Shown here: one piece after another, positions 732 through 15,713 of the stretch
Numbering within the stretch: the stretch's first letter is position 1
How the letters are laid out: each line of letters begins with the position of its first letter
Source of the DNA: an uncultured virus (IMG/VR IMGVR_UViG_3300037067_026584)
Lineage: Duplodnaviria; Heunggongvirae; Uroviricota; Caudoviricetes
Direction: 5' to 3' (one strand)
IMG/VR virus record: IMGVR_UViG_3300037067_026584
Span: 62,001 to 89,732 of that record
DNA length: 27,732 bases
Program-made: the position numbers and the translations under genes
The notes under the pieces: generated by a model
Seen by the model: the letters and a program-made list of their open reading frames with translations, nothing else
Told to the model about the DNA's origin: nothing
Database searches by the model: none

Positions 732-1616
732 CTACACTCGTTTTCCAAGATCCCGGACGACTTTGCGGATATCGTCCAGAGTCAGGTTCGCGTCTAAAAA
801 GACGGTTTCAACAATCTGGTTGATGTACGCTTCTTTCCTTCGGGGAGTATTGCATTGAAGTTGTTCCATTTGTCCGTAATGAGGGGCAGATGCTGATGGT
901 TTGCGAGGCCCTTCCCGATACTGTTGCAGCAGCCAGTCATACCTTTGCTGGACAACCTGCTTGTATTCTCCAGCCAGCCAGGGGCACCGGAGGGCGAATT
1001 CGTGATCGAAATCAACAAAGTCCTTGACATCGGGCATCCCGTGCCCGGAGCCGCATCTGGCATCAATGTACGACTCCCCAACAGGGTATCCCGACCAGAA
1101 CGGCCCGGCTACATCAGCCAGCCGGAACCACTTCTCAATAAGGGTTTTTTCTTCTGGGCTGCCCTCAACAACCGGGACGATGGCCTCTTTGGTCTGTTCG
1201 TCGCAAAACTCTTTGAAAACCTGCTTTGCAAGAGCGGTCTCGTCGGTGCCGCCATCAGGAGATTGCTGATCAAGACTGTCTTCGAAGCGATTCTGGAGCT
1301 CCGTATACAGGGCACTGCATTTTTCCCATACGTCGTTTGCGTAACTGTACGTGGCCTGTATAATGACGGCTTGAGAAGGTTCCTGCCTCTCCCAGAGGCC
1401 ATAGTCGGTTTCCTGATTCTGGCACTCTTCGAGGATGGCGGCTGCATCCATCAGGGTGTACGACCTGTCAATAATGTCATCATGCCATTCCTGATCGAGG
1501 TTGTCCATGTCGTTGTAATCGAAGTCCCCGTTATTGACAAGGGCGTCAACGATCATGTCCTCGTGGTCTGCGATAAACGATCTTGCATCGTTTTCAACGT
1601 CTTTTTGATAATCCAT
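732..1616 (-). CDS. acidic Ocr-like (DNA-mimic-like) domain fused to an unknown conserved C-terminal domain, paralog A
   Basis: Very D/E-rich N-half containing ETDYGLW...IQATYSYANDVWE, resembling T7 Ocr (from memory). Shares GxPVGxSYIDxRCGSG and VDFDHEF..R.PWLAG with 1666..2502. GAGG SD. Confidence 0.6.
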   Translation of the reverse strand: MDYQKDVENDARSFIADHEDMIVDALVNNGDFDYNDMDNLDQEWHDDIIDRSYTLMDAAAILEECQNQETDYGLWERQEPSQAVIIQATYSYANDVWEKCSALYTELQNRFEDSLDQQSPDGGTDETALAKQVFKEFCDEQTKEAIVPVVEGSPEEKTLIEKWFRLADVAGPFWSGYPVGESYIDARCGSGHGMPDVKDFVDFDHEFALRCPWLAGEYKQVVQQRYDWLLQQYREGPRKPSASAPHYGQMEQLQCNTPRRKEAYINQIVETVFLDANLTLDDIRKVVRDLGKRV

Positions 1617-1665: not shown

Positions 1666-2502
1666 TCATTCGTGCCACCCCGCTTTGCGGTTTAATTCCG
1701 ATGCAATTTCTCGTAAATCCCCGGGAGTTAGGGACAAATCGACAAGGAGCATGCGGATGATGGCACCGACGGACTTGTCATTGAGGTCCGGGAGCTCGTG
1801 ATTATCAACTCTCCTTAAGAGTTTGGCCCTGTTTAGCTGGACAAGGGTGTCAAACCTCTTGATAACGTCAGCCTTGCGTTTCCCGGCCAGCCATGGAACT
1901 CTCTTGGAAAATTCATGATCAAAATCGACATAATCGCTGATTTCGATCATGCTGTACCCAGAGCCACACCGGGAATCGATATACGACCCTCCAACCGGGA
2001 ACCCTCCCCAAGTTCCTGCCCGATCATTCTGTCGGATCCAACTGCGGACAAGGAAAAGCTCCTCTTCACTTCCTTCCTCGACCAGATTAGGATCCGGAGA
2101 AGCGTTCTCTTTGATAATCTCGTCAAATGCCTGATCAGCAGTTTTGGCTTCGGTGTCTTCATGATCCCCGAAGGTTTCGGTCATACGGGCATGCATGCGA
2201 CAATACAGGTCTTTGCATTGAGCCCATACGTCTTGACGGTACGCATCAATCGCTGCAACGATCAATGCATTTTCGGGGTCTTCATCTCCGTAGCTGTCTC
2301 CCACGTGTTCGGTTTCCCGCAGGACAATTACAGCGTCCTCCAAGCAAAACGAAGGATCTACATTCTCATTGAACGACTGCAAGCATCTGATATCGTTTGG
2401 ACCAAATTCGGCATCGTTCGAAAGAGCATTAACAAATTCCTCCTTGTGTTCTCGTAGGAGAGAAATTACTTCCTTTGCAATGTCTTCTTTTACTGTTGAC
2501 AT
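1666..2502 (-). CDS. paralog B of 732..1616 (Ocr-like acidic domain plus unknown C-terminal domain)
   Basis: Collinear similarity to 732..1616 over its length. Near-identical upstream SD context CACGAGGAAAA(A)TCATG. Confidence 0.6.
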   Translation of the reverse strand: MSTVKEDIAKEVISLLREHKEEFVNALSNDAEFGPNDIRCLQSFNENVDPSFCLEDAVIVLRETEHVGDSYGDEDPENALIVAAIDAYRQDVWAQCKDLYCRMHARMTETFGDHEDTEAKTADQAFDEIIKENASPDPNLVEEGSEEELFLVRSWIRQNDRAGTWGGFPVGGSYIDSRCGSGYSMIEISDYVDFDHEFSKRVPWLAGKRKADVIKRFDTLVQLNRAKLLRRVDNHELPDLNDKSVGAIIRMLLVDLSLTPGDLREIASELNRKAGWHE

Positions 2503-2536
2503 GATTTTCCTCGTGCCCTGTTATATGGGGGCACAG

Positions 2537-2707
2537 TGCTGTCGAACGGATTCGAACCGTTGTTTTCGCCGTTGGCGTAAGGGGGTAATATGGGTATAAC
2601 AGGATGACATCGAGGACTTTATAATCCCGGCAAATGCAGAAAACCGAGAGTATTTTATTTAGTGTGCAATCGCACGGCGATGATTTTCCAGTCTAATCTA
2701 CGACAGC
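2537..2707 (-). tRNA. tRNA or tRNA-like gene with 98-nt insertion in the anticodon loop; isotype uncertain (Arg-GCG if intron at 37/38)
   Basis: Minus strand: acceptor GCTGTCG/CGACAGC-A73, U8A9, D-arm GATT-AGACTGGAA-AATC, anticodon stem TCGCC/GGCGA, variable AAAC, T-arm AACGG-TTCGAAT-CCGTT. 105 nt lie between the anticodon-stem strands. No encoded CCA. Confidence 0.8.
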
Positions 2708-2724
2708 AAAAATGGTTTTTGTTT

Positions 2725-3069
2725 TTACATAACGACAAACGAAAAATTTTCAGTCCGATCTACAGATGTAATCCAGTTCCGGACGTTTGCAATCCGGCGC
2801 TGTAATTCGGCATTAACTTTTTCTGACGGGTCATTCAGAAGATTAAGCGCCTGAACGATGAACTCCTGAGTGGTGTCCCCGTACGCAACCATAATGGTGG
2901 TTGTATTTTCGTCGAAGATTCCATTGCCGCGTTCTCCTGTTGTACCGGTAAGCTGCCTAGACAAAAAGTGCATGTCGTGACTGTCAACGTTCTTACCATC
3001 GCAGAAAATTCTGAAAAACGGGCACCCTTGAGAAATTCCTCTTTCAATCCTAATTGTGTGATACATCAT
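2725..3069 (-). CDS. hypothetical protein
   Basis: Part of ORF 2725..3258. Start moved to MMYHTIRIERG (GGAG SD) to avoid a long overlap with the zinc-ribbon gene. Confidence 0.65.
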   Translation of the reverse strand: MMYHTIRIERGISQGCPFFRIFCDGKNVDSHDMHFLSRQLTGTTGERGNGIFDENTTTIMVAYGDTTQEFIVQALNLLNDPSEKVNAELQRRIANVRNWITSVDRTENFSFVVM

Positions 3070-3313
3070 TTCGTGACTCCGAGGGCTTTGCTCCAGCGAC
3101 GATCTGGATGCCCCAAATATCGTAATAATACCTCCATACTGCTCCGCAAGAGGCGCACGAACAGATTTCATAAAGAACTTCCCCGAGTCCTCCCTCGTAT
3201 TCATCTGCCGCCACCTCGTTAGAGTGACATACTGGGCATTCCGAGATTGGTATATCACTGCATCCCTCTCGAAGGAGTTTTAATCCTTCGGCAATTTTCT
3301 TCTCATCTGACAT
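3050..3313 (-). CDS. zinc-ribbon protein
   Basis: CPVC...CASC motif. AAGGTGA SD before ATG at 3313. Confidence 0.75.
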   Translation of the reverse strand: MSDEKKIAEGLKLLREGCSDIPISECPVCHSNEVAADEYEGGLGEVLYEICSCASCGAVWRYYYDIWGIQIVAGAKPSESRNDVSHN

Positions 3314-14813: not shown

Positions 14814-15713
14814 TCAAATCACCCCGTTTTTGATCATGTAATGGTTATTCACCAGTGCTTCTTTCACGATCGGAGCAAAGCGTGTCCAGTCAGTGTACAC
14901 GTCACTCATCGATGTATCCGTATGCCCCAGCACAGCGCGAATCGTTATATCGGGCACGTTCAGCAATCGCATTTCAGTCTGAAAGGTCCTCCGGGCGGTT
15001 CTCGATGTGACTGCAACTCCCGAAATTACTCGAGCTTTTCCAACTTGAATCTTGAGATTTTTGGTAAGCCACCCGCCCGGATACGGCAGCCCCGCATCCC
15101 CCTTCTCGCGCACGAATTCATACCACGTCTTCATGTATGGGTCAATGACCGGACTCCATGCCAAGTATCGTTCAACCAGCGTCTTCTCAGTGAGAATGAG
15201 CATTTCACGCTTCTGCAAAGACACCTTGGCAGTTGCCAGATATTTCGATATCTCGCCCGGCCGGGCCCCGAAGTAGAAAAGAACTACAAACCCCGAAATC
15301 AGCTCGTCAGTCGCCCCGCTATCCCTCAGCATTTTGAAAAACTTTGAAAGATCGGCAGAGGTCAAAGCAATTTTCGTGAGATACTTTCGCTTTCGTTTCG
15401 GCCGAATCAACGCCAGCTGATTGTATCGCTGCATCTCGTCATTCACCCTGGGATCCCCAACTGGTAAAGATGTGTACCTGTACTTAAAATATTCACGAAT
15501 CGCCGAAAGAACTGTGCTTTGCGACTCGATTGTTGATATGTACTCATCCACGATGCTGGTTGTTGCCTCCCGTATCGTAATGTGTTTCTTATCCCGAAGC
15601 CACCGCTGAAACGATATCAACAAAAAACCGTACGTCTCGGCTGCCTGCACTTTCCCGGTCAATTTCAAGTGCTCGATAAAATCGTCAGTAGGTAATTCAA
15701 ATCCTTCTACCAT
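14814..15713 (-). CDS. tyrosine recombinase / integrase (XerA/Int family)
   Basis: GARPGEI (catalytic R), TEKT (K), SRTARRTF (RxxR in place of HxxR), LGH, DVY (Y). N-terminal core-binding-like domain. 299 aa. Confidence 0.9.
   Translation of the reverse strand: MVEGFELPTDDFIEHLKLTGKVQAAETYGFLLISFQRWLRDKKHITIREATTSIVDEYISTIESQSTVLSAIREYFKYRYTSLPVGDPRVNDEMQRYNQLALIRPKRKRKYLTKIALTSADLSKFFKMLRDSGATDELISGFVVLFYFGARPGEISKYLATAKVSLQKREMLILTEKTLVERYLAWSPVIDPYMKTWYEFVREKGDAGLPYPGGWLTKNLKIQVGKARVISGVAVTSRTARRTFQTEMRLLNVPDITIRAVLGHTDTSMSDVYTDWTRFAPIVKEALVNNHYMIKNGVI

Follow-up and report, generated by a model that had tools for sequence, protein, structure and literature searches.

The DNA analyzed here, which we call the window, is a stretch of 27,732 nucleotides that corresponds to positions 62001-89732, the final 27.7 kb, of a complete 89,732-bp virus record. 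On its minus strand lies a tRNA-shaped gene that is read from 2707 to 2537, so that RNA position p corresponds to window position 2708-p. The element begins 17 nt after the stop codon of ORF-A and ends 34 nt before the start of ORF-B, and nearly all neighbouring genes are on the same strand. The features of the locus are listed below together with what supports them; L163 is a homologous locus from a metagenome.

2537..2707, minus strand: whole tRNA-shaped RNA gene, 171 nt, no CCA (21 of 21 pairs; ARAGORN -i call; homologue at L163:324-524)
2701..2707, minus strand: acceptor stem 5' strand GCUGUCG, pairs with 2538-2544 (CGACAGC); the U-A of pair 3-70 is replaced by C-G in L163
2682..2698, minus strand: D arm with stem GAUU/AAUC and loop AGACUGGAA, which contains A14 and G18G19 (script); the A-U of pair 11-24 is replaced by U-A in L163
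2676..2680, minus strand: anticodon-stem 5' strand UCGCC, pairs with 2566-2570; L163 has UCGUU/GACGA
2571..2675, minus strand: 105-nt insert that replaces the 7-nt anticodon loop, no bulge-helix-bulge motif (BHB); the L163 counterpart has 134 nt
2621..2653, minus strand: insert hairpin AUA-C-UCUCGGU / GCCGGGA-U-UAU with loop UUUCUGCAUUU at 2632-2642 (minimum-energy fold; kept by RNAalifold)
2566..2570, minus strand: anticodon-stem 3' strand GGCGA (script check of the cloverleaf)
2545..2561, minus strand: T arm AACGG-UUCGAAU-CCGUU (script; identical in L163)
2537..2544, minus strand: acceptor 3' strand CGACAGC and discriminator A (script check of the cloverleaf)
2503..2536, minus strand: trailer of 34 nt with the hairpin GUGCCC (2529-2534)/GGGCAC (2513-2518), followed by GAGG and the AUG of ORF-B (sequence; L163)
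2708..2732, minus strand: upstream flank with a T5 run at 2708-2712 and the TATA-like UUAUGUAAAA at 2723-2732 (sequence; partly aligned in L163)
2725..3258, minus strand: ORF-A, 177 aa, no family (homologue at L163:1-303)
1666..2502, minus strand: ORF-B, 278 aa, unnamed all-helical family (79 family representatives; AF2 model)

A complete cloverleaf with an interrupted anticodon arm

A first-pass annotation of this DNA had described an intact tRNA scaffold with four perfectly paired stems at 2537..2707. These coordinates hold, the strand is the minus strand, and a script check of the cloverleaf found 21 of 21 Watson-Crick pairs in the four stems. U8, A14, G18G19, a C as the last base of the variable loop and the T-loop sequence UUCGAAU, which had also been reported, are all present, as is the discriminator A73; CCA is not encoded. 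Between the two strands of the anticodon stem lie 105 nt, 98 nt more than a 7-nt loop, in agreement with the earlier count. The G32/C38 combination that had been called atypical is there as well. Together with U33-A37, the G32-C38 pair lengthens the anticodon stem of the window copy to 7 bp (UCGCCGU/ACGGCGA), so that a loop left by splicing would be inclined to close up into a triloop. Without constraints, the minimum-energy fold of the window copy has -42.2 kcal/mol and lacks the D and anticodon stems; the fold constrained to the cloverleaf has -39.4 kcal/mol.

A run of five to six T adjoins the 5' end of the element in both viruses. Sense-strand ORFs contain half as many T5 as A5 runs, and 27 of 123 ORFs have a T5 within 40 nt after the stop codon, a distribution that would fit a role of these runs as terminators. 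The TATA-like stretch is located about 20-25 nt upstream of the element and overlaps the stop codon of ORF-A. A TTTAT stretch aligns there in L163, and the element might act as a promoter. On the other side of the element the stem of the trailer hairpin, the GAGG and the spacing to the ATG are conserved in L163.

ORF-B belongs to a family with 79 representatives at E<=0.001, in which D56, A57, G171, Y174, D176, R178, C179 and G180 are invariant. Its AF2 model (pLDDT 88.8) is all-helical. ORF-B matched nothing in Pfam or PHROG, and Foldseek detected no similar fold in the PDB at E<=0.001. The next gene, ORF-C (294 aa; window 732-1616, minus strand), contains DRSYTLMDAAAILEEC, which resembles the consensus of the ORF-B family, and ORF-C may be a paralogue of ORF-B.

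The virus and its probable host

The virus genome ends in a 127-bp direct terminal repeat, and a simple ORF call on the whole virus gives 133 ORFs that cover 94% of the genome. The viral proteins are mostly without a Pfam family. Those with an assignment include a family-B DNA polymerase (PolB), an XPD-type helicase, an MCM-like AAA ATPase, a PrimPol, a thymidylate synthase, two DNA methylases and an integrase-like protein. The cellular PolB encoded in many Methanoregula and Methanomicrobiales genomes shares 65-67% identity with the viral enzyme, and hence the host is probably a Methanomicrobiales methanogen. The archaeal host assumed in the first-pass annotation gains support from this identity and from the presence of the splicing endonuclease EndA in the Methanoregula genome G003. 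Sequencing runs that contain DNA of the virus are landfill, groundwater and wastewater metagenomes.

The identity of viral PolB (G000:C1:32228-34648; L003:12228-14648) to the chromosomal PolB of Methanoregula extends over 99% of the length. Such closeness is unusual for a virus-host pair and suggests a fairly recent gene exchange. The region G000:C1:17052-18554 (L002) of the virus encodes a 168-aa PAS-domain protein and a protein of 150 aa whose similarity is limited to the C-terminal glycyl-radical end of NrdD, the anaerobic ribonucleotide reductase, plus a zinc ribbon.

The integrase-like protein is encoded at window 14814-15713 and matches PF00589 with E 1.9e-5, which is below the curated cut-off. 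Excerpts of two publications state that archaeal viruses often integrate into tRNA genes (PMC4090602; PMC8651126). The element might thus be an attP or att remnant, a copy of a host tRNA gene targeted by a viral tyrosine integrase. We regard this as very improbable, because neither of two genome searches turned up anything similar: the best BLAST match among 228 Methanoregulaceae genomes had E 0.006, and the 3'-end pattern, with one mismatch allowed, was missing from all 401 genomes of the order that were searched. An exact 25-mer of the element had no match in genome_contigs, and no tRNA of G003 resembles either half of the element. The integrase gene is 12 kb away, and an att site leaves compensatory changes in a complete cloverleaf (see below) unexplained.

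Detection by tRNA and RNA finders

Default ARAGORN reports no gene in the window. Rfam gave no match at the gathering score and none at E<=10 in the region 2400-2850, and RF00005 matched nowhere in the whole 89.7-kb virus genome; as a control, the same model found 45 tRNAs in G003. ARAGORN had been proposed as a check in the first-pass annotation, and when introns are allowed (-i) it does report, at genome c[64536,64707], a tRNA-Trp(CCA) whose intron measures 98 nt. For L163 it reports Gly(CCC), which disagrees with the Trp call in the window copy. The intron placement by ARAGORN is heuristic: one host tRNA came out as Asn(GTT), with an intron of 21 nt and a strange additional arm, which by our reading is a wrong placement. 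A further ARAGORN -i call, a 'tRNA-Asp(ATC)' at G000:C1:56409-56781 with an intron of 275 nt, is gone at an intron limit of 200 nt and is probably false.

Two known types of RNA were considered and rejected. The tmRNA contains a tRNA-Ala-like domain with G3.U70 and a tag reading frame. ARAGORN found no tmRNA, and G3.U70 is missing (3-70 is U-A here and C-G in L163). In bacterial-type group I introns of tRNA anticodon loops, the part that splices itself measures some 200 nt or longer; the insert has 98-105 nt and no Rfam match at E<=10, and the host is archaeal.

A syntenic homologue with a conserved tRNA body

An alignment of 25 ORF-B family members retrieved 60 metagenome loci, one of which is the virus's own contig. 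Among the 38 ORF-B loci with enough upstream DNA the element is present in two, the own contig and L163; at the other loci examined the gap upstream of ORF-B is mostly below 100 nt. In L163 the element occupies 324-524 (201 nt, with an insert of 134 nt), the gene order ORF-A, element, ORF-B is the same as in the window, and the T loop is found at -55 from the ORF-B start in both copies. The flanking proteins have diverged: the ORF-A homologue in L163:1-303 has 43% identity over 97 aa (E 3e-21) and the ORF-B homologue 38% identity.

Between the two copies the tRNA scaffold is identical at 57 of 66 aligned positions (86%), compared with 493 of 780 (63%) for ORF-B DNA and 188 of 303 (62%) for the 320 nt upstream. 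The T arm is the same in both. The cloverleaf of L163 has 20 Watson-Crick pairs and one G.U, and all seven stem substitutions between the copies keep pairing. They comprise three compensatory double changes from the window to L163 (U3-A70 to C-G, A11-U24 to U-A and C30-G40 to U-A) and a single change of C-G to U.G at 31-39. In a simulation, seven random stem substitutions left 21 of 21 pairs canonical with P=1.25e-4. Covariation among homologues, a further check named in the first-pass annotation, is hence seen as three compensatory doubles in one pairwise comparison of two homologues. Since the scaffold is much better conserved than the flanks and all stem changes preserve pairing, the tRNA body is, to judge by the sequence comparison, under purifying selection. 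The element is also more than a chance arrangement, because ARAGORN -i calls it and because a syntenic homologue with compensatory changes exists.

These data bear on the idea that the element is a dead relic, a captured tRNA gene that was broken by an insertion and is kept by chance or recency without any function. Such a relic would be rejected by standard tRNA detectors and would share no usable anticodon with its homologue, as is the case here, and the poor conservation and unexceptional structure of the insert as well as the occurrence in only two of 38 ORF-B loci would fit. At the divergence seen in the flanking DNA and proteins, however, the stems of a relic would have been lost, while here the body, the spacing and the trailer are conserved. 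Decay in relatives, an outcome that the first-pass annotation had held against its own proposal, was not observed in L163, where compensatory changes have kept the cloverleaf. Because of these changes we consider a dead relic improbable.

Further copies were sought in several ways. Exact and degenerate patterns of the element had no match in viral_contigs, and BLAST and motif scans of all collected loci gave no homologue other than L163. ORF-A and ORF-B as single queries found no relatives in viral_contigs, and neither did the ORF-B alignment; for ORF-A there was no near-length homologue besides itself. The element is absent from the viral records G001 and G002 (PolB 59% identical). In run X6 a variant of the locus differs by 10 substitutions and two indels, all of them in the flanks; the lack of changes in the element is not significant (about 1.8 expected). 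In a second X6 contig of 327 nt, 30 of 36 bases match window 2650-2685 (D-stem, anticodon-stem and insert start) next to different flanks; a match of this kind is at about the chance level that we estimate for a run of that size. One of the loose ends of this contig contains GAAAATTTTTC, an 11-mer that is also found at window 2741-2751, 44 nt upstream of the element, and that occurs only twice in the virus.

Splice motif and anticodon

Archaeal BHB introns are cut by EndA and the exons are joined by RtcB. The conserved flanks and variable insert of the element also have the look of exons and intron, and therefore a spliced tRNA is the main rival explanation: a genuine intron-containing tRNA used in viral translation, from which host EndA, recognising a relaxed or induced structure, or else a different nuclease together with a ligase, would remove the 98-nt insert. 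The product would be a tRNA-Trp(CCA) from an intron at 33/34 or a tRNA-Arg(GCG) from one at 37/38.

Our BHB script considers all helix-bulge-helix-bulge-helix arrangements with a 4-bp central helix, requires 3-nt bulges and allows G.U. It found no hBHBh' and no relaxed HBh'/hBH motif that would remove the insert in the window copy or in L163, and no one-step or two-step solution (nested or abutting introns) in either copy. In the controls the canonical motif was ranked first in two of three pre-tRNAs: the script recovered a host tRNA-Met with a 39-nt intron and a tRNA-Met of a related virus with a 22-nt intron and missed a 106-nt host tRNA. Hand inspection of L163 revealed a bulge(4)-helix(4)-bulge(4-5) arrangement that has no counterpart in the window copy. 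The first-pass annotation had seen no canonical BHB at 37/38 and had named a standard BHB as the finding that would contradict it. At 37/38, GUGC and CGCC do pair at only one of four positions, and a standard motif is found in neither copy. The relaxed GCG/CGC helix with a 2-nt bulge that it had allowed for is possible and would sit atop the 7-bp extended stem.

It is also true, as had been pointed out, that the anticodon of the window copy depends on the splice site; the possible loops give CCA, GCA or GCG. The eight registers of a 7-nt loop in L163 give GAU, UAU, UUU or UUC, none of which is shared with the window copy. U33 is found in none of the eight L163 loops, and U33 together with A37 in six of eight registers of the window copy. 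With no common anticodon and no U33 in L163, the two orthologues cannot mature to the same tRNA. L163 is, as its sequence reads, unable to make a normal anticodon loop, although L163 rather than the window copy could be the degenerate one.

In G003 a single 372-aa frame with two PF01974 domains represents an alpha2-type EndA, and the virus itself encodes no splicing endonuclease. In an excerpt of PMC4090602 the alpha4 and alpha2 forms of EndA are described as strict for a BHB at the canonical position. A tRNA-Trp is absent from the 45 RF00005 matches in G003 and was not detected by pattern searches of that genome; the host tRNA-Trp gene is probably interrupted by a long intron. The comparison of the element with the G003 tRNAs yielded no close match that would indicate its isotype. 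In the distantly related virus G001 (112.5-kb record; PolB 59% identical), the region L013 (G001:C1 ~105552-109196) contains clustered tRNAs for Pro, Gln, Lys and Ile(UAU), as well as a tRNA-Met with a 22-nt intron that the BHB script places in a canonical BHB at 37/38.

The search for RNA data sets containing this DNA listed none. One run, X10, comes from a library labelled as RNA-Seq cDNA but is rated by the search tool as probably DNA. It contains a 262-nt contig that is identical to window 2500-2759 and is unspliced. The contig comprises the element plus 37 and 52 nt of flank; X10 contains no other part of the 1.3-kb stretch around the element or of the 1.8-kb stretch with which the runs were located. 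By our estimate the chance that a random fragment spans the whole element is ~0.09, and the contig therefore carries no weight for or against splicing.

A spliced tRNA would be in keeping with an archaeal host that has EndA, with the occurrence of intron-bearing viral tRNAs in the group such as the tRNA-Met of G001, with the Trp(CCA) call and the U33 and A37 in most registers of the window copy. The G1-C72 pair and A73 of the element presumably fit the identity of archaeal tRNA-Trp. However, the script that finds canonical host and viral introns sees no one- or two-step BHB in either homologue, the ARAGORN call rests on a heuristic intron placement, L163 offers no U33 and no anticodon common to both copies, and the pairing of G32/C38 and U33/A37 would close the loop. 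The Methanoregula EndA is moreover of the type that the cited excerpt describes as strict. Taken as a whole, we judge a spliced tRNA to be unlikely, with a minor but real chance of being correct.

The insert

The insert differs in length between the two copies (105 and 134 nt) and its sequence is mostly different. Aligned globally, the inserts reach z=1.6 relative to 500 shuffles, a score without significance, and 24 of 1000 shuffles equalled their best local match (10/10). The window insert by itself folds with an energy no better than that of shuffled sequence (z=+0.43). A hairpin recurs, with the loop UUUCUGCAUUU here and UUUCUUGCAUUU in L163 (consensus UUUCU(U)GCAUUU); its stems have 7+3 bp here and 12 bp of different sequence in L163, and RNAalifold keeps it. 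Of the two insert hairpins named in the first-pass annotation, GUGC-GAUU-GCAC is part of the minimum-energy fold. The other, CGGGAU/AUCCUG, did not stand: it competes with UCUCGGU/GCCGGGA, which is preferred both by the fold and by L163. The label 'cargo' that was used for the insert may overstate its nature, because the overall conservation of the insert sequence is not significant. When the insert was compared with its own genome as a repeat or an antisense sequence, there was no match of at least 14 nt, one 13-mer, and counts of 12-mers and 11-mers near chance.

The long euryarchaeal tRNA-Trp intron contains a box C/D guide; box C has the motif RUGAUGA and box D the motif CUGA. In the sense strand of the window region 2400-2850 no C/D family matched at E<=10, and the sense insert contains neither UGAUGA nor CUGA; when set against the long euryarchaeal tRNA-Trp introns, this is a further point against a spliced tRNA. 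The functional product might instead be encoded on the opposite strand, as a box C/D guide RNA antisense to the insert. Eight archaeal C/D-box families match the antisense strand of L163 weakly at 427-481, a stretch that contains GAUGAUGA and two CUGA. The best score there is 15.7 bits (E 0.39), compared with a gathering score of 50, and the matches are confined to L163: the window copy has none at E<=10 on either strand. No terminal stem was seen flanking the boxes, and all neighbouring genes are on the tRNA strand. An antisense guide RNA is accordingly hardly to be expected.

Discussion

We have described a viral gene that has the body of a tRNA and carries a long insert in the place of the anticodon loop. 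The sequence findings fit a tRNA-scaffolded or tRNA-like non-coding RNA, which is a functional class and not a curated family: the body is conserved, the anticodon region is replaced and the copies have no anticodon in common. The explanation that we prefer is that the element is a selected, non-decoding, tRNA-shaped scaffold RNA with a variable insert, and we put the chances of this being right at about even. According to the first-pass annotation, the element was either a viral tRNA with non-canonical splicing or a tRNA chassis that stays unspliced and carries a cargo RNA; an anticodon-nuclease decoy or a mark for RNase P/Z processing, the functions it had suggested for the chassis, are possible roles. 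The unspliced chassis is favoured here by a body under selection, the lack of a BHB and the lack of a common anticodon; non-canonical splicing is the alternative that we have called unlikely above.

In the case of a scaffold RNA, a freely evolving 105-nt insert would stand in place of the anticodon loop and would not be removed by the BHB endonuclease of the host. The element would be transcribed from the TATA-like element over the stop codon of ORF-A, or by read-through. RNase P, tRNase Z and the CCA-adding enzyme of the host might then recognise the tRNA body, and tRNA end-processing would cut out a stable RNA of about 171 nt. The same processing would leave an ORF-B message that has the conserved 5' hairpin and a ribosome-binding site. 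The tRNA fold would thus provide processing and stability, and the insert would be displayed at the anticodon position, where its best-conserved part, the hairpin with the loop UUUCU(U)GCAUUU, is a candidate contact site for a partner. The element may act as a decoy, as a guide or as punctuation of the transcript.

The element shares several features with archaeal intron-containing pre-tRNAs. These are the archaeal setting, the complete cloverleaf with an interruption of about 100 nt in the anticodon loop, the lack of an encoded CCA, a host genus with EndA and a related virus that has a tRNA with a canonical intron. In contrast to BHB pre-tRNAs, it has no BHB for removal in one or two steps and no anticodon conserved between homologues, and its G32/C38 and U33/A37 are complementary. 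It also differs from the euryarchaeal tRNA-Trp intron in that no box C/D is present in the sense strand.

In its architecture the element matches a man-made RNA. An excerpt of PMC3753655 describes the engineered tRNA scaffold of Ponchon and Dardel, which serves the expression of recombinant RNA and takes up the foreign RNA in the insertion region of the anticodon stem-loop. Because it retains the acceptor stem and the T and D arms, the cell handles such a construct like a tRNA (PMC3753655). The engineered scaffold was made for E. coli, whereas the element is natural, viral and archaeal, and its processing and stability are what we infer.

In nature, parts of the tRNA fold are used in tmRNA, in the modules of bacterial YrlA/Y RNA, in the stable RNAs species 1 and 2 of phage T4 and in the tRNA-miRNA chimeras of gammaherpesviruses. 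As in these RNAs, where part of the tRNA fold is borrowed for processing or protein binding and another domain is carried along, the element combines a tRNA fold with an additional domain, and the phage and herpesvirus examples are likewise encoded by viruses. The extra domain of these RNAs is, however, not known to be located inside an otherwise complete four-arm cloverleaf, as it is in the element. Unlike tmRNA and YrlA, the element also has no match to Rfam, which contains models of both. Full-text literature searches, which amount to a partial survey, returned no description of such a gene.

What the element means for the virus and its host depends on whether it is spliced. In the spliced case an alpha2 endonuclease regarded as 'strict' would, in a euryarchaeal host, remove an intron lacking the canonical motif, and ideas about the substrate limits of this enzyme would have to be revised. 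If it is unspliced, the element would belong to a conserved class of tRNA-derived genes that are overlooked by tRNA finders and by Rfam. A wider reading, which we propose tentatively and with somewhat less than even confidence, is that natural tRNA-scaffold RNAs are a product of methanogen viruses in general and perhaps of other archaeal viruses too. In such RNAs a complete tRNA body, cut out, provided with CCA and stabilised by the tRNA-maturation enzymes of the host, would display an exchangeable domain of 100-135 nt that acts on a host or viral partner. This domain might for instance serve as a decoy that draws off tRNA-binding proteins or the defence nucleases that attack tRNAs, or as a loop-loop antisense regulator. 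To our knowledge, viral non-coding RNAs in archaea are almost unknown. An unspliced element would be a natural version of the engineered tRNA scaffold and would represent a new class of virus-encoded tRNA-like RNA in archaea.
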